Positions 28,568-60,193 of a stretch of DNA of 64,000 bases are shown here, piece after piece. The translations under genes and the position numbers were made by a program. The number at the start of each line of letters is the position of its first letter. Position 1 is the stretch's first letter. Under the pieces are notes generated by a model. That model did not search any database and was not told where the DNA came from. It saw nothing but the letters and a program-made list of their open reading frames with translations. Origin of the DNA: a virus (Duplodnaviria > Heunggongvirae > Uroviricota > Caudoviricetes); IMG/VR virus record IMGVR_UViG_3300032007_000057, positions 1 to 64,000 of that record; one strand, given 5' to 3'.

Positions 28568-28645
28568 TGGTCGGGTATGGAGGATTTGAACCTCCGACCC
28601 TCTGCTCCCAAAGCAGATACGCTAACCAGACTGCGCTAATACCCG
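28568..28645 (-). tRNA. tRNA-Pro (anticodon UGG), CCA encoded
   Basis: Minus-strand cloverleaf CGGGTAT...TCTGC-TTTGGGA-GCAGA...GGTTCAAATCC...ATACCCG-A-CCA. Confidence 0.75.
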
Positions 28646-28650
28646 TTTAG

Positions 28651-29187
28651 TTACTCTTTAAAATACAAATCCCCAGTTTTATCTCCATCAATCTTATGCA
28701 GAAATACCCAATCTAAAAACTCACAAGCAGTAGATCTTTCTTCTTCAGAACAATCACTACCATTAATATACTCATCAAACCATTTATAAAACAGTTTCTT
28801 TCTATTGAAAGTTGCATTAATACAACTACTAAGCATATCCAAGTCAATATCTTTAAGATCTGTTTTACCGGCGTTTTTCATTACAGCTTCAATAGTTTCC
28901 CTGATAGCCTTAACATTTTCTGGCTGATAATAACGTTCGGCATTATTAGTCACATTTTCACATTTATTTATAGTCATATTCATATTTGTTATCCCACTTT
29001 CTTTATATTGGTAATAATGATTGGGATACTTAAAGACCAAAACTCTAGCTTTATAGGGAGAGGTTTGATCTCTATCCCAATAAACTAGTTCCATTTCTAA
29101 AAGCTTTCTAGCTTCAAATGGAGTAATCTTGACACTATCTTTTTTAAACTCTGAATCAAATAACTTAATTGTTTTCTCCATACTCAT
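28651..29187 (-). CDS. Hypothetical protein (178 aa)
   Basis: ORF. Confidence 0.45.
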   Translation of the reverse strand: MSMEKTIKLFDSEFKKDSVKITPFEARKLLEMELVYWDRDQTSPYKARVLVFKYPNHYYQYKESGITNMNMTINKCENVTNNAERYYQPENVKAIRETIEAVMKNAGKTDLKDIDLDMLSSCINATFNRKKLFYKWFDEYINGSDCSEEERSTACEFLDWVFLHKIDGDKTGDLYFKE

Positions 29188-29261
29188 TATGGGTAGTCTC
29201 CTTTATATAAGGGTGATTGTCTCTGCTTTTTTAATCAAGAAAAAACAGGTCAAAAAGAAAA

Positions 29262-29295
29262 GGTTTGAGGGGAATTTCACCCCTCTGAGAGGTAT
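29262..29295 (-). terminator. Rho-independent terminator
   Basis: GAGGGGaatttcaCCCCTC stem. On the minus strand it is followed by TTTTCTTTTT. Confidence 0.5.
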
Positions 29296-29488
29296 TAAAT
29301 TTTAAACTAAAAAGCCATAGGAATATACGCAGCTTTATAAGTCTGTTGCTTAGTTGATCAGTATCTAAGCTATCTGGAAGATGCGAAGACCTATGGTTAA
29401 TTCTTTAAAAGGCTATAGGAATATCAGTACTCAAATGATCAGTTTAAGTAGTCTATCTGATAGACCTATAGTCAATGCTTATCTATTA

Positions 29489-30097
29489 TTAGGGCCACTC
29501 ACCAAGAGGCTGTCCAAGAAGACCCTGCTGAGGAACCCCTTCAAGAATCTCCTTGAATTCAATCTTATCGTAATTGGAATACACACTGATAAGAACAACC
29601 CTGTTAGGATTACCCTTAGTCATAGCCTCAGGAGAAAGCACCATCTCTGTTTCACCAGCAAAGACGTACTTCACACCATTGACAACCTGTGTACCAATAA
29701 GTGCAAAAACTGAAACATTACTACCAACAAATCCAGCAAGATTATCCTCAAGAACCTTCATGGCCTCTTCAGGAATATCAGTAGTAGGATTAATCTGAAC
29801 CCCACCCATCTTACCAGAGTCAGACAGGACATTGGTAATCTCCACAATACTGAACTTATCATCCTTCTCATTAAGAACAATAAGAACCACATTATGAACA
29901 TCATTTCCAGTAATCATGGTCTGTGTAGCAAGAATAGCATGATTAACTCCAGAAACAACCTTACTACCAAGGTATGCAATCACATTATACTCAGCACCAA
30001 CCATATTACCAAAAATCTCTGTAAATGCGGAAGCAACCTTCTGAGGAAGCTTACCGGGAACAACATGAATCTCATAACTACCCAACATAAATATCAT
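29489..30097 (-). CDS. Hypothetical protein with internal tandem domain duplication (202 aa), moderately GC-rich
   Basis: Two repeats of ..KVVSGVNHAIL...G..VHNVVLIVL / ..QVVNGVKYVFAG.......NPNRVVLISV. Confidence 0.5.
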   Translation of the reverse strand: MIFMLGSYEIHVVPGKLPQKVASAFTEIFGNMVGAEYNVIAYLGSKVVSGVNHAILATQTMITGNDVHNVVLIVLNEKDDKFSIVEITNVLSDSGKMGGVQINPTTDIPEEAMKVLEDNLAGFVGSNVSVFALIGTQVVNGVKYVFAGETEMVLSPEAMTKGNPNRVVLISVYSNYDKIEFKEILEGVPQQGLLGQPLGEWP

Positions 30098-30422
30098 ATC
30101 CTTTCTTATTTATTTTTATCAAAAATAAAAGCTTTTATCAACATTACAATTATAAAAATTATAACTACGTATTGTATATATGGCAATAACTTTATTGAAC
30201 TATCAAATACTCCTGATAACCAGGAAAAGAATACATCAAACATACAATGTATGCACTACCAAGTTATGTTTAGTAGTATCTACTTTCTGTGGATAAGGAT
30301 CTTCATTATTCTTAAATCTCTGATACTGAAGATCTTTATACTCCTTCTTCTTCACCATTGTTCTAGTACCTGTACTGTCTTCTGTAAAATACCATTCAGT
30401 CATGTTATACATCAATCCTTTC

Positions 30423-30593
30423 TTAAGGCATATCAACTTCGTCTACATAAAGAACAATTTCCTCATTACCATAGCTATCACCAGTTGCTGAAATACTTGA
30501 TTCATCATAAAGTTGCTGAACTGAATCAAAATAGCTCTCAGAAACCTCAACTCTATGCCCTTCATCAGTTTTAAGATAGTATTTAGCAGACAT
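30423..30593 (-). CDS. Hypothetical small acidic protein (56 aa)
   Basis: ATG at 30593 with an upstream SD-like AAAGGGTG. Not in the supplied ORF track because it is under 60 aa. Confidence 0.3.
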   Translation of the reverse strand: MSAKYYLKTDEGHRVEVSESYFDSVQQLYDESSISATGDSYGNEEIVLYVDEVDMP

Positions 30594-30617
30594 ATTAACT
30601 ACACCCTTTCTTTTCTT

Positions 30618-31454
30618 TTATGTTACTGTAAATGTTTTTGAAATATCGTATTGTTCGTTCTGCCACCACGCATCCATTCCTACTCGAAAGTCTATACGGA
30701 CTGTATGTTCACCAACATCACTTACAGAGGCAGGGTCTGGAGCTGTCCAACTTCCAGAAGCAGTTAAACTATTATAAGTCTGAGAATATACCCGATTTTC
30801 ATCATAGTATAAAGTTATAGAATTAAGTTGATATCTAGTTTGTTGAACTGTATACGGAACAAAATCCCATTCAACATATGCACTTTCACCAACCGATATA
30901 TTATTAACCCTTAACACCATACCCTTGTATCTGCCTTCACCTTCTCTATACGAAATATCAACGGTCCTTACGTTATCATTGTTGTCTTCTCTAACATAGG
31001 TGTTAAACAAATCTATTATACGATTATAACAGCTATCTGCCGGTCTACTTGATAAATAAATACTATAAAATGAATCTTCACCATAATCATAATAGGTTAA
31101 AGTTTCTCCGTCATAATTAAATGTTTGATCGATATATGGAAAATAAATAGAAAAAGAGCCTAAATGGGCTATGTCAGGATCAGAGCAATATGCTCTTAGT
31201 TCAAACCATCCCATATCGGGAGGAGTATTATAATAAGGATCGTCTCCATTGCCATATGTACCGTAAGCTGACGCAGCTGGTTTACCAATTAAACGATCAT
31301 TTATAACTAAAACAATTTTAAATTTTTCAGATTTATTTTTAATAACAAACCCAACACTAATAGTCGAATCATAAGTTTGTGCTTCCGCAAAGGTCATTCT
31401 GTATATCTTATACTCATCTTTCCCCCCATTCAACAAAAGAGGTTTTGTAAACAT
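30618..31454 (-). CDS. Hypothetical protein (278 aa), possibly structural
   Basis: ORF. Tyr/Asn/Asp-rich beta-like composition. Confidence 0.45.
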   Translation of the reverse strand: MFTKPLLLNGGKDEYKIYRMTFAEAQTYDSTISVGFVIKNKSEKFKIVLVINDRLIGKPAASAYGTYGNGDDPYYNTPPDMGWFELRAYCSDPDIAHLGSFSIYFPYIDQTFNYDGETLTYYDYGEDSFYSIYLSSRPADSCYNRIIDLFNTYVREDNNDNVRTVDISYREGEGRYKGMVLRVNNISVGESAYVEWDFVPYTVQQTRYQLNSITLYYDENRVYSQTYNSLTASGSWTAPDPASVSDVGEHTVRIDFRVGMDAWWQNEQYDISKTFTVT

Positions 31455-31523
31455 TGATAAACACTCCTTTTATAAGTTTTATATTTGTAAGAACTAGGTA
31501 AACTAGTTTAAAAGTCAAAGGTA

Positions 31524-31599
31524 TGGTGGACTCGCTGGGGTATGATCCCAGAACCTGGCGATTATAAGTCGCCTACTCTACCAATTGAGCTACAAGTCC
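31524..31599 (-). tRNA. tRNA with anticodon read as UAU (Ile2-like). Anticodon assignment tentative.
   Basis: Minus strand: GGACTTG acceptor, GGCGA-CTTATAA-TCGCC anticodon arm, GGTTCTGGGATC T-arm, CGAGTCC-A-CCA. Confidence 0.65.
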
Positions 31600-31608
31600 A
31601 TGTAATAA

Positions 31609-31695
31609 TGGTGCCCAGGGGGGGACTCGAACCCCCACGCCAGAGATGGCAAGGGATTTTAAGTCCCTTGTGTCTACCTATTCCACCACCTGGGC
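31609..31695 (-). tRNA. tRNA-Leu (anticodon UAA), type II with long variable arm
   Basis: Minus strand: GCCCAGG acceptor, AGGGA-CTTAAAA-TCCCT, long extra arm, GGGGGTTCGAGTCCCCC, CCTGGGC-A-CCA. Confidence 0.75.
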
Positions 31696-31717
31696 ATTTA
31701 ACTATTTTTATATTTTA

Positions 31718-31794
31718 TGGAGCCCCTAGGAAAAGAGTTGAACTTCCATCACTTCTTTACAAGAGAAGTATAATAGCCGTTATACTATAGGGGC
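31718..31794 (-). tRNA. tRNA-Thr (anticodon UGU)
   Basis: Minus strand: GCCCCTA acceptor, CTTCT-CTTGTAA-AGAAG, GGAAGTTCAACTCTTTTCC, TAGGGGC-T-CCA. Confidence 0.7.
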
Positions 31795-31963
31795 AAATAA
31801 ATCTTATTTGTAGTCTACATCACTCAAAAGATTTAGGAAAGTTCTATACTATATTTTACTTCTGATTAACAGAGAGTGCTCCATCCTTAGCTATAGTATA
31901 GATAGATGGTTAAAAGGTGTAGATCTTTCAATAACTACTTACTGAAGACCTTTATCCAGGAAA

Positions 31964-31992
31964 ATTATATCAGCAGTATAGTTATTTGTCAA
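31964..31992 (-). promoter_or_regulatory. Perfect consensus sigma70 promoter (TTGACA-17-TATAAT) driving the tRNA cluster
   Basis: Minus strand: TTGACAaataactatactgctgaTATAAT, about 170 nt upstream of tRNA-Thr. Confidence 0.6.
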
Positions 31993-32544
31993 GTACAAAA
32001 CTGACTCACTTATTTATATGATCTACATGACCCTAAGAATAGGTCATTTGTGTAGTACTTTCGATGACTTTAATGGGCGTAATATATGTACTACAATCCT
32101 TTTCCCCTTTCAATCAAAGGATGACAGTTTCTTACCACTTGCAGTAACCTGACAACTCTCCGGAATCCTCCACTCAACACTGCTCTAGCTTCTACTAAAG
32201 GTGGCTCAACATTAAGTTTCATAGGATAACTACTACCTCAAGTGTAGTAGGTTCTAACAGTTTTTATAAAGTCTATCCCTTAGCCAAGGTAATTTTTATT
32301 GAGGGTTACATTCCCTAATAGACTTCTATCCTACTTATGCCAAATGAAGACATTACAATCTTCTAAGTAGATCAGCCTTTATTTACTGTTATTTCCCAAG
32401 CACTGATTTGGGTGAAAGGATTTTAATTGTAACTCATTTTAGGTTACAATTTAATTTTTAATGGCTCCTCCTGGTGGTTACGCTCCACCGTATACGGTTT
32501 AACAGACCGCCACTCTACTATTGAGTTAAGGAGGAATTAGAACT

Positions 32545-32639
32545 GGCTCTGGAGCCCCGATTCGAACGAGGATGAGAAAGGAGGTCCCTTTACTTACTGA
32601 TCCAAAGTCAGCTGTTTTTCCAATTAAACTACTCCAGAG
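32545..32639 (-). ncRNA. Atypical tRNA-like element. 8-bp acceptor stem, long variable arm, anticodon loop CTTTGGA (UUG).
   Basis: Minus strand: CTCTGGAG...GTTT-AATTGGAA-AAAC...GCTGA-CTTTGGA-TCAGT...AAAGG-GACCT-CCTTT...CCTCGTTCGAATCGGGG...CTCCAGAG-CC. Canonical T-loop GTTCGAATC. Non-standard combination of features. Confidence 0.3.
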
Positions 32640-32782
32640 TTAAATTATCAAGGGTTCACTTAAGACTCGCACTTAAGATCTTCAGCTTTCACATTTTCCT
32701 AATTATGCTCTAGAAGCATACATAGAAAACACTACTCAGTGAGATTTTGCTATTTAAACTATGAACCATGTCCAACAAAGAT

Positions 32783-32811
32783 ATTAAAGCATACTGACAA
32801 GAATTTGTCAA
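32783..32811 (-). promoter_or_regulatory. Sigma70-like promoter (TTGACA-17-TTTAAT) inside the ORF-free region, pointing at the tRNA-like element
   Basis: Minus-strand TTGACA, 17 nt, TTTAAT. Confidence 0.45.
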
Positions 32812-33503
32812 GAGGTGATTTTAAAAATTTTATGGCAGGTCCACTACCGCTTGCAGATAGTTCTGAAGTTTTGGAGACTCCTGTTTTACTACATAAACTA
32901 TGGACCCATCAATATTTGTTCAAAAAATTTTAGGTGTGGAGAGAAGTAATGAGGTACTCCTCCCCACTTCAAAGGAGAACGATCATGAGCGGAAAAATAT
33001 ATAGATACTTGATAGCTGTGAGGTATGTTCAGACTCAGACTCTGTTTAAATAGTACAGACCTTTATTCACAGATTTACATAATAATTACCAGCTACTTAC
33101 TATTAGCGAACGAGTTTACGTTATATTAAAGCTAATGTGATTTCACTAAGTAAATCTTAAGTGAGGTTCGACCAAGCCTCTTCATAGGGTCTAACTACTA
33201 AATCAACAATACTAACTACTCCCTACTCAGTAAAGTCTTACTCAATCCAAGATAAAATAGTCATCAATCAAAGACTATTATTTGAAATTAGATGTAAGGC
33301 TTTCTAGTCTCAGGAAAATTGAGAGAAAAGCATTGTTATTATATCGTCACATTTCAGGTGTGAAAATATAATTAGATAACTTTGCGGTCATCTAAATATT
33401 AGGAGAGTATCTTTCTTATTTTTACATGAATAAGATACTCAGAAAATCATGAAACAGAGTATTTAGAACTTTCACCAAGTATCAAATCTTTAAGTACTAA
33501 AAC

Positions 33504-34172
33504 TTAGTACTCAATTTCAATAGTGGTAGTTGCGTTAGAAACCTGAAGTGCTGAATCAACATTGAGTTCAAACTGATCAATCTCAATACTAAGAGCGTTA
33601 ATCTTCTTATTAATATCAATAGGATCAATAAGAACTGGCTGATTCTCCATATTGTACTTTTTCTTAAAGGCCATGATAGCATCTGTATTGATATTGGTTT
33701 TATCCTTATTACCATACAGGGTCTCAATGGTTTTTTCAAGTCTCTGTTCAGCTTTTTTAGTATCCTCTTCAAGCTGACTCTGTGCAAACTGAAGCTGAGT
33801 CTGAAGAGTATTAAGAAGCATTTTCTTAGTCTTAAGCCCATACTTCATCTGATAAATTGCTTCAGCAACAGTCATTTCCTTACCACCAACATTAATGATG
33901 GTTTCAGCATTAGACTTACTGATAGCAGCTTTAATAGCATCAACTCTTCTAATCAGATCAGTAACTGCCTGATAATTACTGCTTACCTTAGAACTAAAAT
34001 CCTGAATTGACATTCCATCAATTCTAAAATTATCATTAGTAGGATTATTATTTACAGCCACATACCTATTGCTAAAACTAGTGTACTGCATAATTTTCTT
34101 ATCTGCAAGTTTGACCTCACAAAGCGCCTTATGAATAGTCATCTTCTCAGTAGTCATTGCTTCAACCTCCAA
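33504..34172 (-). CDS. Hypothetical coiled-coil protein (222 aa)
   Basis: ORF. The 33497..33841 ORF is an alternative frame. Confidence 0.5.
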   Translation of the reverse strand: MEVEAMTTEKMTIHKALCEVKLADKKIMQYTSFSNRYVAVNNNPTNDNFRIDGMSIQDFSSKVSSNYQAVTDLIRRVDAIKAAISKSNAETIINVGGKEMTVAEAIYQMKYGLKTKKMLLNTLQTQLQFAQSQLEEDTKKAEQRLEKTIETLYGNKDKTNINTDAIMAFKKKYNMENQPVLIDPIDINKKINALSIEIDQFELNVDSALQVSNATTTIEIEY

Positions 34173-34182
34173 ATAATAGTTT

Positions 34183-34320
34183 TTACTTAACTCTCTTAAA
34201 ATAAACTACAACACCAGCAATAATAACAAGCAAAGCTACAAGAACTGCACTGGAAGTAATAGGATTAGCAGCTACAGTATTCTTAGCAGCGGTAAGCCAA
34301 GTAAACGCATAATTCAACAT
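34183..34320 (-). CDS. Small hydrophobic protein (45 aa)
   Basis: ATG at 34320 preceded by SD GAGGAGG. One clear TM helix (AVLVALLVIIAGVVVYF). Confidence 0.4.
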   Translation of the reverse strand: MLNYAFTWLTAAKNTVAANPITSSAVLVALLVIIAGVVVYFKRVK

Positions 34321-34392
34321 GTTTAAATTCCTCCTCATAATAAATACTAAGTCTATAAACTCTTACTAATACTACTTTAGTAAGTTTAGGAC

Positions 34393-34478
34393 AGAGGGCA
34401 GGAGACTCGAACTCCCAATACCTTTTCAGGTATGCCTGTTTTCAAGACAGGTTCCTTAACCAATTTGGATAACCCTCT
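34393..34478 (-). tRNA. tRNA-Ser (anticodon UGA), type II
   Basis: Minus strand: AGAGGGT acceptor, CCTGT-CTTGAAA-ACAGG, long variable arm, GGAGTTCGAGTCTCC, GCCCTCT-G. Confidence 0.65.
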
Positions 34479-53123: not shown

Positions 53124-53261
53124 AATATTTTTACTGAGTTGTTAACTGCCCTGTTAAATAAATTGGCCCTTTAGTCTGAGGATTACTGGGTGGGGAGTTA
53201 ATAGCATGCTATTCTTTGGTAGACAACTGCCATCAGTTAACAACCAGTATACATTTTAAAT

Positions 53262-53337
53262 GCCTCGCCATAGTTCAATGGAAAGAATCCGGGTCTTCTA
53301 AACCCATGATCTCAGTTCGATTCTGAGTGGCGAGGCC
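53262..53337 (+). tRNA. tRNA-Arg (anticodon UCU)
   Basis: GCCTCGC acceptor, GGGT-CTTCTAA-ACCC anticodon arm, TCAGTTCGATTCTGA T-arm, GCGAGGC-C. Confidence 0.65.
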
Positions 53338-53402
53338 AGTATTTATCAATATTTACATGCTGTTAACAAAATCTAAAATAGAAAGGCAGTGGTAATGACC
53401 CT

Positions 53403-53717
53403 ATGAATAAAGAGGAAAAAGCATTATCAATTGTATATGGTATAACAACTTGTTTAACATTAGGATTATTTATTTTTATGTACTATACAATGTATCAGGA
53501 AATTTTTGTAGCAAATAGTATTACCTTAACAACCTGGGGAATAGTGTTGCTTATATTATTTGCAGGATATCCTGTAGTATTTGCTATGAAATTGCTATCA
53601 TTAGTTATGCCATTGCCATTTATTATTTCAGATAAACTTCTTTGGATTGCTATATCAGTTGCTGTAGCAAGGGGACTTATGGATATTTTTGAAAAAACTT
53701 TGAAGGGGGATAAGTAG
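53403..53717 (+). CDS. Small integral membrane protein (104 aa, about 3 TM)
   Basis: Three hydrophobic helices. Confidence 0.5.
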   Translation: MNKEEKALSIVYGITTCLTLGLFIFMYYTMYQEIFVANSITLTTWGIVLLILFAGYPVVFAMKLLSLVMPLPFIISDKLLWIAISVAVARGLMDIFEKTLKGDK

Positions 53718-53721
53718 AGCT

Positions 53722-54936
53722 ATGCCAAGAAAAAAAGCAGATGGTACTGAAGTAGAACAGGTTGCTGATGATCTTATTGCTGGATTGGACGATGCATTAA
53801 GTAAAATTAGTGGTTTGGAAGATCTGACTGGTAGTGATGAAATTAGGTGTGTTCCTACTGGAATAGACCTTCTTGATGAAGTCCTTGGCGGCGGAGTTCC
53901 AGTAGGTAAACTGTGCTCAATGACTGGTGCCGCTGGGTCCGCAAAGAGCTCGTGTGCGATTCAGTATATTGTAGGCTTTCAGCATTATGACCCTCGTTCA
54001 ATTGGAGTATTTATTGATGTTGAGCAAGCAATTAGTATGAAGAGACTTATTGAATTGGGTTGTGATCCTAAAAGAACTAAACTTTTTAGCAATTCTGAAT
54101 TAACAATGGAAAGAATAGCTTCAATTGTTAGAGGATTGGCTAAGTTTAAAATAGAGCATAAGGTTAAAGATGTTCCATATATTGTAGTGTGGGATTCTGA
54201 ATCAGTGACACCTACACAAAAAAGCCTTGAAGCAGCTGAGTCTTCTAAAGTAATGGGAGAGCATTCAAGAACTTTGGGATTTATTATGAATCAGTTAATC
54301 CCATATATTGCTAAAACAAACATCACTTTGGTTATTATTTCTCAATTAAGAGATAAGATTAGTCAGAATCCTTATGAAGTAAGGTTTGATATGAATTTTG
54401 GATCTAATCAGAAGATTACTGGTGGTTCTGTAATGCAGTATTATCCCTTTAATATGTGCCGAACTAGGAATAAGGGTGAATTGGATTATGATATGATGGG
54501 TATTAGAGGGTTTAAAACAGAGATGACATTTCTTAAAAATAAGAACTTTGCCCCTAAAATTCCTATCCAAGTAGTTCTCGATTATGCAACAGGATTTTCA
54601 GATTTTTGGACTAAAGAGAATCTTATTAGGGAAGCTAAATGTTTTATTACTTCTGGACCTAAGAATGCTTTGAAAAATTATAAAGATTTTAAATTCAGTA
54701 GAAGAGACATTAAAAAACTTTATGATACTGACGAAACCTTTAGGGAAAAGTTTGAAGAGCAGTATAACATCTGTAAATCAGAAATTCAAACAAATAATCC
54801 GTGGGATAAAAATCTTCAGATCAAGAAAGTTAAAGAAGTTGAATCTGATTTGTCTGATGAAGATCAGGATCTTCTTAGTAAACTTGATTCTCTTGGTTCA
54901 GAACCTACAGATGAATTGAATTTGGATAATCTTTAA
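53722..54936 (+). CDS. RecA/UvsX-like recombinase
   Basis: PTGIDLLDEVLGGGVPVGKL..MTGAAGSAKSS (Walker A), IVVWDSESVTP (Walker B-like), SQLRDKI. Confidence 0.65.
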   Translation: MPRKKADGTEVEQVADDLIAGLDDALSKISGLEDLTGSDEIRCVPTGIDLLDEVLGGGVPVGKLCSMTGAAGSAKSSCAIQYIVGFQHYDPRSIGVFIDVEQAISMKRLIELGCDPKRTKLFSNSELTMERIASIVRGLAKFKIEHKVKDVPYIVVWDSESVTPTQKSLEAAESSKVMGEHSRTLGFIMNQLIPYIAKTNITLVIISQLRDKISQNPYEVRFDMNFGSNQKITGGSVMQYYPFNMCRTRNKGELDYDMMGIRGFKTEMTFLKNKNFAPKIPIQVVLDYATGFSDFWTKENLIREAKCFITSGPKNALKNYKDFKFSRRDIKKLYDTDETFREKFEEQYNICKSEIQTNNPWDKNLQIKKVKEVESDLSDEDQDLLSKLDSLGSEPTDELNLDNL

Positions 54937-54957
54937 AGAAAGAAGGTTTGCATTAAT

Positions 54958-55260
54958 ATGAAAATCTTTATTTCTCAGCCTATTACAGGTAAATCAAATT
55001 CAGAAATCTTTGCAACTAGGAAAAATATTGTATCCAAACTTCATACTAAATATCCAGATGCTACTATCATTAACTCTATTATCTTAGGTGGTAATGATAC
55101 TAATGATATTAAATATCTTGGACTTACTCTCAATCTTATGGCTGATGCAGATCTAGTAGTTATGGCTAAAGATAGAGCAAATTCTAAGGGATGCCAAGTT
55201 GAGCAGTATGTTGCGACAATCTATAATAAAGAAATCATTGAAGAAAGTGAGTTGGATTAA
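54958..55260 (+). CDS. Hypothetical protein (100 aa)
   Basis: ORF. Confidence 0.45.
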   Translation: MKIFISQPITGKSNSEIFATRKNIVSKLHTKYPDATIINSIILGGNDTNDIKYLGLTLNLMADADLVVMAKDRANSKGCQVEQYVATIYNKEIIEESELD

Positions 55261-55262
55261 TT

Positions 55263-55850
55263 TTGTTTAATGATTTTAATGTGGTCATAAGCATTACTTT
55301 ATCTGGTAAATCTTATGAAGAATCTATGCATCTTAGTGATGATGTAATTATGGGTATTTGTAGGAATTGTAATCCTAAATATAGCCCTAAAACTTATTTT
55401 CATCCTAAAACTTTTGAATCAAATATTAAAGTTCCAGATATGGATAAAGAACTAAAAGAGATGGTTAATAGAAGGAAATGCATTATAATCACTCCTAAAA
55501 TTAATGACTATGATGTGGTTATTAACCTTCTTTCAGCAGTAAAAAGATGGAGAGAAAACTGTGATGAAAATGTTTTTGGTAAAACTATTGAAATCACGGC
55601 AGAGTCTAAAAGCTTTGATGGAACTCTTCATTACAATATCTCTAATAAAATGTTCATTCCATCAAGAACTAAACTGGAAATTGAAGGGGTTACCCAGTCT
55701 TTTATTGATAAAATTAACGCATTCAATAAAGATATTGATGATATCCCAGTTGTTGTTCTTACTGAAGAGGAGTTGGCTGAAATCAATAAGCCAAAAATTA
55801 AACAGGAAACCTTTGTTGATAAACTTCTTAAAGATTTTCCTATAAAATAA
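55263..55850 (+). CDS. Hypothetical protein (195 aa)
   Basis: ORF. Confidence 0.45.
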   Translation: MFNDFNVVISITLSGKSYEESMHLSDDVIMGICRNCNPKYSPKTYFHPKTFESNIKVPDMDKELKEMVNRRKCIIITPKINDYDVVINLLSAVKRWRENCDENVFGKTIEITAESKSFDGTLHYNISNKMFIPSRTKLEIEGVTQSFIDKINAFNKDIDDIPVVVLTEEELAEINKPKIKQETFVDKLLKDFPIK

Positions 55851-55867
55851 TTAAATAAATCTTTTAA

Positions 55868-55915
55868 AGAGACTCCTCTTCTGGTATAATATCTCCAGAG
55901 TGAGGAGTTTTTCTT
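55868..55915 (+). promoter_or_regulatory. Terminator hairpin with embedded extended -10 (TGGTATAAT) before the nrd cluster
   Basis: aGACTCCTCttctggtataatatctccagagtGAGGAGTtTTTCTTT. Confidence 0.4.
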
Positions 55916-55947
55916 TACTCAAATATAAATGGAGGTAATGATATAAT

Positions 55948-56157
55948 ATGCTGTTATATACGACTGGATGTTCAAAATGTAAAATCCTTGAGTCAAAACT
56001 TAATGAAAAAGAAATTAAGTATGAAGTGTGTGAAGATAAAGAGCTGATGAAATCTAAAGGATTCAGATCAGTACCTGTTCTTGAATTGGATGATGGAACT
56101 ATACTGACCTATGGTAAAGCAGTCAAGTATGTGAATAATTGGGAGGATAATCAGTAG
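55948..56157 (+). CDS. nrdH: Glutaredoxin-like protein NrdH
   Basis: 69 aa. CSKC redox motif. VPVLELDDG. Confidence 0.65.
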   Translation: MLLYTTGCSKCKILESKLNEKEIKYEVCEDKELMKSKGFRSVPVLELDDGTILTYGKAVKYVNNWEDNQ

Positions 56158-56158
56158 T

Positions 56159-56695
56159 ATGGCTGGATACTTAGATATTAGTATTAAGTTAGATGAAGAC
56201 TTTGTTGAATGTCTTAAAGGATTAAAGAAAGAATACGGTAATAAATTAACTATACTCAATGGTTTGAGTAATAGCCAATTAAATAATACAGAATTTATAG
56301 ATAACTTTGTTGATAAGAATACCTCCACAGCAGATGCATCTATAGATGGTAATGCTAATGCAAGTACTAAAGATATCTGCTCATTAATGGTAGAAATGAG
56401 AAAACCAGAACTTAAGCTTGAATCATTTAATAAAATATTCTATGAGTTAAAGAAGAAGTATGGTGTTGAAGTAGCTAGAGACTGGTTAAAGAATGAGTGG
56501 GATGGGCACTTTTATAATCATGATGCCTACAGTACTAGCTTTTTGCCTTACTGCTTTGCTTATGATTTAAAAGATCTGGCTGAGAAGGGGTTGTATTTTA
56601 TTAAGGACAACTTTAACCATCAACCACCACAGCATTTAACTACCTTTACAGACTTTGTTGGAGAATTCGTGTCCTATATGAGCAATCGTGGATAA
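56159..56695 (+). CDS. nrdD: Anaerobic ribonucleotide reductase NrdD, exon 1
   Basis: FYNHDAYSTSFLPYCFAYDLKDL...VGEFVSYMSNRG aligns with the T4 NrdD region HVHDIDYSPALPFTNCCLVDLKG...QYGG. The frame stops exactly where the conserved sequence should continue. Confidence 0.65.
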   Translation: MAGYLDISIKLDEDFVECLKGLKKEYGNKLTILNGLSNSQLNNTEFIDNFVDKNTSTADASIDGNANASTKDICSLMVEMRKPELKLESFNKIFYELKKKYGVEVARDWLKNEWDGHFYNHDAYSTSFLPYCFAYDLKDLAEKGLYFIKDNFNHQPPQHLTTFTDFVGEFVSYMSNRG

Positions 56696-57069
56696 AACTG
56701 CGACTTTATAGAGTAATCTATATTGTAATTCAATTGTGAACTGCTGGAAAGGTTAATTAACCTAATCAGCATCTACGTTTAATAATAATTAAACAAGATC
56801 AACGACTATTCCTTTAAAAGGAAGTAAAACTAACTTTCATAAAGTTAAAGTTTGAAGTGCAAGGGCCTAAATATTAGGTTGAAGATATAGTCTTTTAGTT
56901 TTTTAAGCTAAAAAGTTCAGGAGCTTGTGGACTCCCCAATTTCTTAATTTACTCATTTTATTTTTGGAAGAAAGATTGTGAGAATGGGTATTACCCCAAA
57001 AGTCAAGAATATTATAGAGACAATGAGTTCCAACGCATAATTTTTAAACTGAACCAACCGTACCTGAGA
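56696..57069 (+). other. Intervening sequence splitting nrdD (candidate group I intron, about 375 nt, no ORF)
   Basis: Flanking ORFs align to contiguous NrdD sequence (..QYGG|TTFANVD.. versus ..SNRG* / ..SSFTNFTIFD..). Confidence 0.45.
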
Positions 57070-58323
57070 GTGAACCAAAGTTCATTTACAAATTTTACTA
57101 TTTTTGATAGAGAATATTTTGAAGCACTTTTTGGAGATAAAACCTTCCCTGATGGAAGTTATATGATTGATTTTGAGGAAGAGTTTATTAATTATGAAAA
57201 GGCGTTTATGAAAGTTGTGTCAAAGATTAGAGAAACTAATATGATGACATTCCCAGTATTAACCTTTTCATTGCTTAGAGTTGATGGTAAGTTTATAGAT
57301 GAAGAATTTGCAAGGTTTGCTGTGCAGCATAATATGCGTTGGAATGACAGCAATTTCTATATTTCTGAGGATGTGACAAGTCTCAGTAACTGCTGTAGAC
57401 TGGTCTCTGACATTAATACTCCCTTCTTTAACAGCATTGGGGGCACAGCATTAGAAGTAGGATCTATTAAGGTTAATACAATTAATCTTGCTAGAATTGC
57501 ATATGAAACCAATACTAAAGAAGAGTATATGAAATTATTAGAAGAAAAAACTATTTTGTGCTTACAGACATTGGATGTAATTAGACACATTATAAAGAGA
57601 AATATTGAAAAAGGATTACTTCCAAATTATTCTTGTGGAGCACTTCATTTGGAATCTCAGTATAATACTATTGGTATTATTGGCATATATGAGGCAATTC
57701 AGAAGTTTGGTTTTACCTATAAAGATGAATTTGGTAATACCTTCTATACTGATGAAGGACTTCAGTTTGCCAAAGATTTTATGCAGAAGATGATTGATGT
57801 TAAGACTGAATTTGCTAAAGATAAGGATTATATGATTAATATTGAACAGATTCCTGGAGAAAGAGCTGCGGCTGTTCTTATGCAGAAAGATCAGATATTC
57901 TTCCCAGATGAAGCTTATGAGTTACCACTGTATGGAAATCAATTTATACCATTAGGTGTTAAGACTACTTTACAAGAAAAAGTCAGAGTGTCTGCGGTAT
58001 TAGATGCTGCCTGTTCAGGCGGTTCAATACTGCACGCAAACGTTGATGCACCTATACATGATTTTGATACTGCATGGAGATTGATTAACTATATTGCTGA
58101 TAGTGGCGTAAAGTACTTTGCTTTATGTGTAAGGATTAGCACCTGTAAAAATAACCATGCATATTATGGGTCCAGGTGTCCAATCTGTGGAGATCCTACA
58201 GAAACCACATGGCAGAGAATAGTTGGCTTTTTAACACCAGAGAAATCATACTCTAAAGAAAGAAAGGCTGAATTTGCTTTGAGAGATTGGTTTAAAATTA
58301 ATGATATGGGAGAAACCTTTTGA
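57070..58323 (+). CDS. nrdD: Anaerobic ribonucleotide reductase NrdD, exon 2 (Zn-ribbon and glycyl-radical region)
   Basis: NCCRLVSD, TALEVGSIKVNTINLARIA, C-terminal CVRISTC...CPICG and RIVGFL (glycyl-radical-like). Confidence 0.65.
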   Translation: MNQSSFTNFTIFDREYFEALFGDKTFPDGSYMIDFEEEFINYEKAFMKVVSKIRETNMMTFPVLTFSLLRVDGKFIDEEFARFAVQHNMRWNDSNFYISEDVTSLSNCCRLVSDINTPFFNSIGGTALEVGSIKVNTINLARIAYETNTKEEYMKLLEEKTILCLQTLDVIRHIIKRNIEKGLLPNYSCGALHLESQYNTIGIIGIYEAIQKFGFTYKDEFGNTFYTDEGLQFAKDFMQKMIDVKTEFAKDKDYMINIEQIPGERAAAVLMQKDQIFFPDEAYELPLYGNQFIPLGVKTTLQEKVRVSAVLDAACSGGSILHANVDAPIHDFDTAWRLINYIADSGVKYFALCVRISTCKNNHAYYGSRCPICGDPTETTWQRIVGFLTPEKSYSKERKAEFALRDWFKINDMGETF

Positions 58324-58808
58324 GATTAACTAATCTTAAAGATGAAGACTTTGTGAACTATAAGAAGCCATCACTTTTTATAGGCACATGTTATTGTGAT
58401 TTTAAGTGCTGTGATGAGGGTGGTTTTGACAGGTCAATCTGTCAGAACCATTCTCTCTACAATTCAAAACAGCATGAGCTTACTTCAGAACAACTTTATA
58501 ACAGATACATCAATAATCCAATTACTTCAGCTATAGTTATAGGTGGATTAGAACCTATATTACAAGTGGAAGAAGTTATTGAGCTTATATCATATTTTAG
58601 ATCTAAAGATTGTAAAGATGATTTTGTTATATATACAGGTTATACTGAAGAAGAACTCATTAATAATCATATTCTTGACAAATTTAAGAAATATGATAAT
58701 ATTATATTCAAATTTGGTAGATTCAAACCAAACCAAGAAAAACATTGGGATGAAGTATTGGGAGTATATTTGATTTCAGATAATCAATACGGAAAGAAGG
58801 TATCTTAA
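58320..58808 (+). CDS. nrdG: Probable anaerobic RNR activating protein NrdG
   Basis: 162 aa directly downstream of nrdD. Cys cluster GTCYCDFKCC. Non-canonical CxxxCxxC spacing, so confidence is moderate. Confidence 0.5.
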   Translation: MRLTNLKDEDFVNYKKPSLFIGTCYCDFKCCDEGGFDRSICQNHSLYNSKQHELTSEQLYNRYINNPITSAIVIGGLEPILQVEEVIELISYFRSKDCKDDFVIYTGYTEEELINNHILDKFKKYDNIIFKFGRFKPNQEKHWDEVLGVYLISDNQYGKKVS

Positions 58809-58812
58809 AACT

Positions 58813-59070
58813 ATGTCTATACCTGTAATTACTGGTGCAACTTTAGCTTGTTCAGTTGGAGCCATTCATAATGAGACTATGAATAGATCCAATGAAAAAT
58901 ATGATACCGATGACTTGATGGATATGCTTAATTTAATAGAAGCTCATTACTTTATGATGTTGAATCGTATAGATTGGGAAAAGAGTTATAATCCTAATTT
59001 AAGATCTAAATTGATTAAAGATTTTGATAGCTTTAAAGAAGAGCTATTTAAAGTACTAATTAATAAGTAA
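58813..59070 (+). CDS. Hypothetical protein (85 aa)
   Basis: ORF. Confidence 0.45.
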   Translation: MSIPVITGATLACSVGAIHNETMNRSNEKYDTDDLMDMLNLIEAHYFMMLNRIDWEKSYNPNLRSKLIKDFDSFKEELFKVLINK

Positions 59071-59470: not shown

Positions 59471-60193
59471 ATGTTTAATAAAAAATTATTGATGAAGAAC
59501 TTTGATGAGAAAGAAAAACCTCTAGTAGATCTTTCTAATTGGGCTTATAACACTTATACTAAAACATATAGTACCATGACTGAATTAGACCAAACAGGAA
59601 TTGATTATTTAAATTCCGTTAGAGGGACCGGTATGGGTAACATGTTTTATAATTGTAGTTCATTAACTTCATTAGATGTATCTAATTGGGATACTAGTAA
59701 TGTTACTAGTATGGACTATGTGTTTTCTGGGTGTCGTTCATTAACTTTATTAGACGTATCTAATTGGGATACTAGTAATGTTATGTATATGAGCTATATG
59801 TTTGATAATTGTAGTTCATTAACTACATTAGATGTTTCTAATTGGGATACTAGTAACGTAACTGATATGGAGAATATGTTTTATGATTGTAATTCATTAA
59901 CTTCATTAGATGTATCTAATTGGGATACTGGTAAGGTTAATCATATGATGGATATGTTCGAAGAGTGTAGTTCATTAGAATATTTAATTATTGGATCTCC
60001 TACTTTTAAATTTCGGATGATTGATTCTAGTTGTGGAAACCTTAACACTACTTGTAAGATTTTAGTTCCATCAGCATTACTTGATACATTTAAAACTGCC
60101 ACTAACTGGTCTTCAAGAGCCTCACAGTTTGATGCAATAGAAAACTATACAATAACTAGATCAAATGGTCAGGTTACTGTGACACCCAAATAG
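59471..60193 (+). CDS. DUF285-type repeat protein (four or more LDVSNWDTSNVT.M..MF..C.SLT repeats)
   Basis: Four consecutive roughly 26-aa repeats. Matches the Mycoplasma/Firmicutes DUF285 surface-protein repeat. Confidence 0.6.
   Translation: MFNKKLLMKNFDEKEKPLVDLSNWAYNTYTKTYSTMTELDQTGIDYLNSVRGTGMGNMFYNCSSLTSLDVSNWDTSNVTSMDYVFSGCRSLTLLDVSNWDTSNVMYMSYMFDNCSSLTTLDVSNWDTSNVTDMENMFYDCNSLTSLDVSNWDTGKVNHMMDMFEECSSLEYLIIGSPTFKFRMIDSSCGNLNTTCKILVPSALLDTFKTATNWSSRASQFDAIENYTITRSNGQVTVTPK

Follow-up and report, generated by a model that had tools for sequence, protein, structure and literature searches.

Within the 64,000-nt stretch of DNA analysed here (the window; IMG/VR virus record IMGVR_UViG_3300032007_000057, positions 1 to 64,000), the anaerobic ribonucleotide reductase gene nrdD is split by a small insert that ends in A, the position at which the terminal guanosine of a group I intron is expected. 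Sequence comparisons indicate that this insert, at 56690-56913, is almost certainly a group I-type ribozyme descended from canonical relatives. The allele of the window is referred to as W, and a slash within a motif marks an insertion or splice point.

The gene was originally listed as two open reading frames (ORFs; Table 1), between which about 55 positions of the NRDD profile are apparently absent. An earlier note on this DNA had read them as collinear NrdD pieces with an ORF-less stretch between, broken inside a conserved block, and both observations were borne out: exon 1 stops in a block whose commonest form among the listed homologues is SNR[ST]SGACGLP, and 119 of the 120 listed homologues contain the motif pattern, with its core N-R-[S/T]-S-G-A (the single non-match, P0021, was not inspected). 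The size that the note gave to the gap, 374 nt, had to be revised. The open stretch of the exon-2 frame begins at 56899, and exon 2 itself starts 156 nt upstream of the listed ORF, which had been started at GTG 57070 because there is no start codon further upstream. From 56914 to that GTG the frame encodes SSGACGLPNFLIYSFYFWKKDCENGYY...LRVNQ, and comparison of these 52 codons (56914-57069) with those of relative L005 gave 0.68 differences per synonymous site (pS) and 0.13 per non-synonymous site (pN), with a ratio of the corresponding substitution rates (dN/dS) of approximately 0.08, indicating strong purifying selection on codons that lack a start codon of their own. The note's alignment of SSFTNFTIFD with T4 GTTFANVDKV was likewise misplaced, as T4 VASHQYGGTTFANVDKV is contiguous within T4 exon 1, where the aligned stretch is joined directly to VASHQYGG, and the counterpart here is SNR/SSGACGLPNF.

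The limits of the insert were set exactly by two intron-less alleles. The first encodes P0247, an uninterrupted 646-aa NrdD from the 90%-identity protein cluster of exon 2, on a 281.6-kb contig (L214) with the gene order of the window and the junction AGC AAT CGT AGT TCT GGT; the second (L225) reads AAT CGT AGT TCG GGA. The window reads AAT CGT, followed by GGATAAAAC...GCTAAAA and then AGT TCA GGA, and the boundaries cannot slide because the flanking bases are unlike the terminal bases of the intron. This comparison places the insertion between codon 177 (CGU, Arg) and codon 178 (AGU, Ser), inside the SNR/SSGACG block. Removal of 56690-56913 restores the nrdD reading frame, and the exons joined at 56689/56914 encode a 646-aa NrdD that matches Thermotoga maritima NrdD (4U3E) end to end (E 5e-143) and differ from the intron-less P0247/L214 at 89 of 1941 nt, with 82 synonymous differences and 7 non-synonymous ones. 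Stop codons occur within the insert in all frames and no ORF of at least 30 aa was found on its plus strand; an intein was rejected on account of these stops, the TAA at 56693-95 and the different frame of exon 2.

A search with the Rfam group I model RF00028 matched 56680-56915 over the full length of the model (positions 1-253; 47.3 bits, E 2.6e-10), the sole such match in the window, while the family model R1 gave 210.7 bits. The single-sequence minimum free energy (MFE) fold recovered P1, P2, P4, P5, P6, P7, P8 and P9, with a z-score of -3.8. On an alignment of the window intron with three relatives from the contig L186 (introns A, B and C), the hand-drawn structure paired 94.5% of cells versus at most 46% with slid partners, and 17 pairs had changed on both sides, values that were reached by none of 500 shuffles. 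The note's proposal of a small group I intron free of an endonuclease thus stood in kind, through the RF00028 match, the covariation and the absence of an ORF, and fell in size, the intron measuring 224 nt and not about 375.

The individual helices are consistent with this assignment. P1 is supported by both the Rfam alignment and the MFE fold and puts a U56689.G56700 wobble pair at the 5' splice site, formed with the internal guide, on which P10 abuts P1. The conserved core P3-P8, the P3/P7 pseudoknot and the R/S elements are all present: P7 is invariant in all family members, and P3, with four invariant pairs and one that is U.G or U.U, is consistent across the family without covariation. 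The sequence shows that a P1-P9 fold with the P3/P7 pseudoknot is available to the RNA. G56804-C56892, next to the bulged C56803, is the predicted guanosine-binding pair, a role that we presume from its likeness to G264-C311 of the Tetrahymena intron. Two covarying hairpins, P7.1 and P7.2, lie between P7 and the 3' strand of P3, an arrangement that we take to be a hallmark of subgroup IA and that suggests this subgroup for the window intron.

Close relatives of the intron were found in nrdD on two contigs of related uncultured phages, L186 (ENA ERZ28634106 scaffold_10940), which was reached via protein fragments of related nrdD genes and hosts introns A, B, C and E, and L125 (contig IMGVR_UViG_3300032007_001390), which carries a further family member, F. 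These five introns score 160-221 bits with R1 (148-221 bits for the canonical relatives found with it), are 223-252 nt long and ORF-less, and share helices P2-P9 and P7.1/P7.2 with the window intron, to which A, B and C have a mean column identity of approximately 78% (alignment A2, which leaves E and F outside). Their junctions are readable and follow one set of rules: the last exon base is U, paired U.G with a 4-nt guide that lies 3 nt before P2; P10 has 4-5 bp and abuts P1; and the last intron base is G, which in E and F directly follows P9. All five sit at other nrdD sites and end in G, whereas the introns of the window and of two further alleles, L216 and L223, end in A. RF00028 scores of the close relatives range from 38.5 to 60.2 bits. 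Unrelated introns at the neighbouring SSG/ site (L181, L183, L185) also have U...G ends.

The single nrdD of L186 (L186:1099-3434) holds five group I introns in about 2.4 kb, as does that of L187; four belong to the family of the window intron, at FVSFMS/NR, QRIV/YKLNQ, SNCC/RLVS and SIA/HINL, and the fifth, of another family, lies near RVNQSA/. A 148-bit family member outside any recognisable nrdD (L036:2303-2532, minus strand) follows a short ORF ending in ...GFADNRF and a stop; its 5' exon, AAUCGU, is like that of the window, and its guide, ACGAUU, would give U-A and not U.G at the predicted splice site. Among annotated phages, the introns whose core is most closely related occur in jumbo Staphylococcus phages; they are small and interrupt the virion RNA polymerase gene, and the highest-scoring one (58 bits), in the beta subunit gene of Staphylococcus phage Machias (L226:1314-1893), lacks P7.1/P7.2. 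A generic P7 pattern retrieved more than 119 phage introns, none in nrdD and only L036 and L080 moderately related, and a megablast search of the region against the phage collection gave no match. The same-site pattern ACTGCGA N20-40 ATTGTGAACTGCTGG had no match in viral contigs, four in metagenome contigs that were rejected as chance (all GC-rich), and one in genome contigs, in an Alteromonadaceae metagenome-assembled genome, which was not inspected and is presumed to be chance. Among three other family patterns run on viral contigs, one gave no match, the second distant IA introns only, and the third two chance coding matches and the L125 contig again.

Gene callers annotate two ORFs at the locus, as would fit their production without splicing, as separate polypeptides of a two-piece NrdD. 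We regard this as extremely improbable, as the 52 codons upstream of the GTG are conserved at their low dN/dS without a start codon, and as the insert has a group I fold with covariation and with homologues among nrdD introns elsewhere whose removal restores the frame.

We then consider where splicing could occur. The guide of the window intron is GCGA, followed by CUU and P2, and its P10 pairs AGUU with AACU. The nearest G to the 3' end is G56915, 2 nt into exon 2 and out of frame, and U56689 joined after it would give CGU/UUC AGG..., a frameshift with a premature stop shortly past the junction. Use of the upstream G56907 or G56898 would produce in-frame insertions of 2 or 5 residues, respectively, in the window; the former (+Leu-Lys) was rejected as this G is A in L216 and L223, and the latter (+FFKLK) as an extra U in L216 breaks the frame. 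Other in-frame U...G pairs were discarded since conserved residues are lost and the exon ends, by inspection and with P1 pairing uncomputed, mismatch the guide GCGA. Only two in-frame solutions are therefore common to all alleles, U56689/...A56913/ and G56691/...G56915/.

The second of these solutions moves both cuts of the same ribozyme 2 nt downstream, yielding CGU GGU UCA with Ser178 changed to Gly, a complementary DNA (cDNA) junction CGUGGUUCA and an RNA junction ...AAUCGUGG/UUCAGGAGC. It would keep both a terminal G and the frame, the guide would continue to carry P1 (up to G56691-C56698) and a 2-bp P10 (UU with AA) without a gap between them, and the residue after Arg/Gln does vary in distant homologues, being Tyr in T4. 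However, the cleavage-site pair would be a Watson-Crick G-C, versus the U.G wobble of all five relatives; Ser or Thr occupies the position in all 119 motif-matching homologues of the 120 listed; and intron-less alleles read AGT, not GGT, so that the rebuilding of AGT from 'AG' and 'T' would be a coincidence. We consider these shifted sites improbable. The terminal-A solution is favoured because it matches the P1/P10 geometry of the family and rebuilds the intron-less sequence exactly, and we judge the case for a CGU/AGU junction with terminal A to be evenly poised.

An error or a one-off is not the source of the terminal A: over the junction stretch and across nrdD, the window is matched without a difference by three metagenome contigs that were assembled independently, and two diverged alleles, L216 and L223 (the latter equal to L224 here), carry the same intron at the same site, both ending ...CUAAAA/AGUUCG. 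No G-ending version of the window intron was seen among the alleles found or in the pattern scans of viral, metagenome and genome contigs. The introns of W and L223 differ at 13 alignment positions, almost all of which preserve the fold: P6a has three compensatory pairs, in P7.2 one pair is altered to a G.U wobble, and there are changes in loops; a change in P5 leaves two unpaired cells in the alignment and refolds by hand with a one-base register shift. In L216 there is one extra change to a wobble, in P2, together with two P9-loop changes (G56907A and the extra U), and L223 also carries A at 56907. Exon 2 (1410 nt) shows 45/2, 42/3 and 41/3 synonymous/non-synonymous differences among the carriers with all ORFs intact, and the pattern is the same between carriers and intron-less alleles. 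As the ribozyme fold and the downstream exon are both conserved in the three carriers, exon 2 would be translated in frame, which argues for productive in-frame splicing, an outcome that we hold to be probable. An automated protein-guided junction finder, intended as a control on other introns, was too noisy to use, as sliding ambiguities and window effects left score differences of at most 6 points.

Several points weigh against productive splicing by a group I intron that ends in A. The RF00028 score lies just under the gathering score of 50, so the covariance-model check suggested in the earlier note succeeded in the extent and E-value of the match and fell short in score. The window intron obeys all the other rules of its relatives and lacks the 3'-terminal guanosine (omega G), which by the accepted rule is universal and mechanistically required in group I introns. 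In group I splicing, the terminal G occupies the pocket that first held the free G cofactor; the predicted G-binding pair here is an ordinary G-C, with no co-variation favouring A. In Tetrahymena, a G-to-A change of omega reportedly prevents the exons from being ligated as long as the G-binding pair stays as it is, and Price and Cech in 1988, Michel and colleagues in 1989 and Been and Perrotta in 1991 are said to have seen ligation by terminal-G mutants only with a G-C to A-U change. Both these mutants and the window intron have A in the omega position, although the mutants were made in the laboratory whereas the A of the window is natural and present in three alleles. Finally, divergence between W and L216 is low in a tract around the intron (5 differences in approximately 580 nt versus 3.8% beyond), which suggests transfer of the intron by recombination; part of the exon divergence may consequently predate the intron, weakening the argument from selection. 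A literature search for natural introns lacking a terminal G found nothing relevant, and a conserved terminal A with computational evidence of a working gene appears to be without earlier description in the literature searched, the intron being otherwise of a known sort.

An intron crippled by its terminal A would account for some of these points. In such a case U56689 would be joined to the exon after G56915, or ligation would fail, leaving either a junction ...AAUCGU/UUCAGGAGC in a frameshifted messenger RNA (mRNA; ...SNRFRSLWTPQ..., then a stop) or unspliced RNA, and nrdD would be an inactivated accessory gene that looks intact through recency and recombination with functional alleles. The terminal G is thought indispensable and the G-binding pair is unchanged; as in relative B, G56915 follows P9 by 'AG'; the clone is young, nrdD being identical in the window and three other contigs; the low-divergence tract suggests recent transfer; and a phage might do without its nrdD if deoxynucleoside triphosphates came from the host. 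We nevertheless find this explanation unlikely, as the terminal A is common to three alleles whose differences between W and L223 almost all preserve the fold and include three compensatory pairs, as no G-ending version was found, and as every carrier has an intact exon 2, in which synonymous changes outnumber non-synonymous ones by about 15-22 to one. If U56689 and G56915 were instead used and a programmed ribosomal frameshift led back into the exon-2 frame, both RNA rules would be satisfied and exon 2 would still be translatable, but there is no slippery motif at CGU UUC AGG (W) or CGU UUC GGG (L216, L223), and a +1 shift would cost the protein a residue in a motif of invariant length, making this very improbable.

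In the favoured terminal-A model, and by analogy with the family, free guanosine bound at G56804-C56892 would attack after U56689, wobble-paired with G56700; exon 2 would then be held on the guide by the 4-bp P10 next to P1 (AGUU with AACU); and A56914 would be joined to exon 1, giving an mRNA ...AAU CGU AGU UCA... that encodes the 646-aa NrdD with the junction of the intron-less alleles. A56913 may be tolerated because P9 and P10 would clamp it from both sides, neither helix being separated from it by a linker. The terminal base lies immediately between these two helices in relatives E and F as well as in the window, a placement that could position A without base-specific binding. The full combination, in which splicing is productive with an omega A, the G-C pair is kept and the 3' site is set by the P9/P10 clamp, in at least three diverged alleles and a host gene under purifying selection, is one that we put forward tentatively, leaning slightly to doubt. 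Were the terminal-A model true, spliced RNA would read GAGCAAUCGU/AGUUCAGGAGC, with the cDNA junction CGUAGUUCA.

Table 1. Features of the split nrdD locus in the window; helices of the intron are predicted.
Feature	Position	Strand	Basis or remark
Thioredoxin/glutaredoxin-fold ORF, 69 aa	55948..56157	+	directly upstream of nrdD
NrdD ORF 1 as listed	56159-56695	+	Pfam NRDD profile positions 14-100; ends FVSYMSNRG, then stop
nrdD exon 1, 177 codons	56159..56689	+	NRDD positions 14-100; collinear with T. maritima 4U3E; ends ...FVSYMSNR, last codon CGU
P1 hairpin	56686..56703	+	exon UCGU (56686-89) and intron GG (56690-91) with guide CUGCGA (56698-56703)
Group I-type intron, 224 nt, ORF-less	56690..56913	+	intron-less alleles, RF00028; first base G56690, last base A56913
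P2, 6 bp, GUAA loop	56707..56722	+	two-sided changes in 3 of 6 pairs, alignment of 4 family members
P3 5' strand UUGUG	56734..56738	+	proposed partner 56858-56862 (UGCAA); pseudoknot with P7; hand-assigned
P4, 56742-47 with 56766-71	within 56742..56798	+	invariant in family
P5, 56751-54 with 56759-62	within 56742..56798	+	covaries; A-rich J4/5 and J5/4
P6/P6a, 56772-74 with 56796-98 and 56777-82 with 56789-94	within 56742..56798	+	P6: 6 covarying family pairs
P7 5' strand	56802..56808	+	partner 56888-56893; aligns to RF00028 R/S elements GACUA / AAGAUAUAGUC
P7.1, 56810-14 with 56818-22	within 56810..56853	+	two-sided changes in 4 of 5 pairs
P7.2, 56827-37 with 56841-53	within 56810..56853	+	A-U to G-C exchange
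P8 hairpin	56864..56880	+	family alignment (covaries), MFE fold
P9 hairpin, UUUAG with CUAAA, loop 56899-56907	56894..56912	+	MFE fold; loop varies among alleles, including G56907A
3' junction A56913/A56914 G56915	56913..56915	+	A where terminal G expected; same ...CTAAAA/AGTTC in L216, L223/L224
P10, AGUU (56914-17) with AACU 56696-56699	56914..56917	+	4 bp
nrdD exon 2, 469 codons and stop	56914..58323	+	NRDD positions 103-560; starts SSGACGLPNF
NrdD ORF 2 as listed, GTG start	57070-58323	+	Pfam NRDD profile positions 155-560
nrdG-like activase gene	58320..58808	+	Pfam Fer4_12, E 1e-8; overlaps nrdD stop codon

The genes on either side of nrdD are conserved in order, the 69-aa ORF preceding nrdD in all relatives compared and nrdG following it among relatives. 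The 69-aa ORF has weak Pfam matches to Thioredoxin_3 and Glutaredoxin (E 1e-3 to 3e-3, under the curated cut-offs), and its product is possibly the reductant of NrdD. Phage c-st has an annotated glutaredoxin two genes upstream of nrdD, with an nrdD-related ORF between. The window NrdD is nearest to that of T. maritima (4U3E/4COI) and contains the SNCC double cysteine; together with the upstream thioredoxin/glutaredoxin-fold gene, this is compatible with a thiol-dependent rather than a formate-dependent class III reductase. Contigs L002 and L003 are identical to the window over 53159-59045 and diverge abruptly thereafter, which marks a mosaic boundary at 59045, just downstream of nrdG; from 59046 onward they have a 481-aa gene in place of the window's small ORFs. 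In a 240-aa ORF of the window (59471-60193), a unit of about 24 residues is repeated in tandem four or five times (LDVSNWDTSNVT...), and relative L005 has a DUF285-type protein annotated downstream of nrdD/nrdG. Eight transfer RNA genes were found in the window, seven of them clustered at 28571-34478 on the minus strand (one weak, at 37.9 bits) and the eighth at 53264-53335 on the plus strand, just upstream of a RecA-like gene.

The T4 nrdD (sunY) intron, which the earlier note had cited as a known case, is likewise a group I(A) intron in a phage nrdD and scores 105 bits with RF00028. It lies at NRDD position 142/143 versus 101/102 in the window, whose site is thus approximately 41 profile positions upstream; it is 1033 nt long (calculated from coordinates) and carries the ORF of the GIY-YIG endonuclease I-TevII, whereas the window intron has none; and it has U...G ends, with the junction GAGU/...G/AUGAAG. 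The T4 site is the counterpart of that of L186 intron B. Given the different site and a family-model score of 41.5 bits, compared to 148-221 for close relatives, the T4 and window introns are only distant relatives. Other known cases are the introns of the jumbo gut ('Jug') phages, among which 95 of 104 genomes have an nrdD broken up by mostly ORF-less introns averaging about 206 nt, terL is affected as well, and splicing was confirmed by metatranscriptomes for approximately half of the introns tested (PMC12880540). The window intron resembles these in its shortness, its lack of an ORF and its nrdD host; contigs of the window's phage measure 281-288 kb. Phage nrdD is altogether well known for harbouring group I introns and inteins: Lactococcus phage 949 has a non-coding nrdD intron and c-st an nrdD intein (PMC3653736). 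We rejected c-st as a case of intron-split nrdD, the gene being a single 2937-nt coding sequence that contains the intein.

The region around the insertion site is a hot spot, with at least four intron points within eight codons of FVSxMS/NR/SSG/A/CG (window 56672-56925; L181, L183, L185 and L186; P0121-P0240), and many SSG/ introns read into GIY-YIG-like ORFs. Close relatives such as L214 and L216, approximately 95-97% identical in nucleotide sequence over the nrdD stretches compared, differ in their nrdD introns and inteins; an intein (Intein_splicing/LAGLIDADG) lies in the exon-1 region in some, an intein lies at SNCC/ in others, and L214 has neither introns nor inteins (polymorphic loci: L216:1-1125, L223:583-2253, L217:1-566, L005:3001-5970 and L126, residue ~338). 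In L185 (a contig of NCBI GCA_016295295.1), at about 1700-1740, a conserved nrdD exon has an in-frame TAG, between KFAD and DFARW, where relatives have E; the stop could be recoded, the gene could be a pseudogene, or the TAG could be an error.

As small group I introns free of an ORF had been described in phage nrdD before, the existence of the window intron is ordinary, and it is its 3' end that stands out. If the terminal-A model is true, the second step of splicing does not require specific recognition of the base, provided that flanking helices put the nucleotide in place; the other possible outcome would reveal a shifted, non-wobble 5' site. The nrdD hot spot, with its intron and intein polymorphism, may also provide a useful system in which to follow the spread of endonuclease-free introns.

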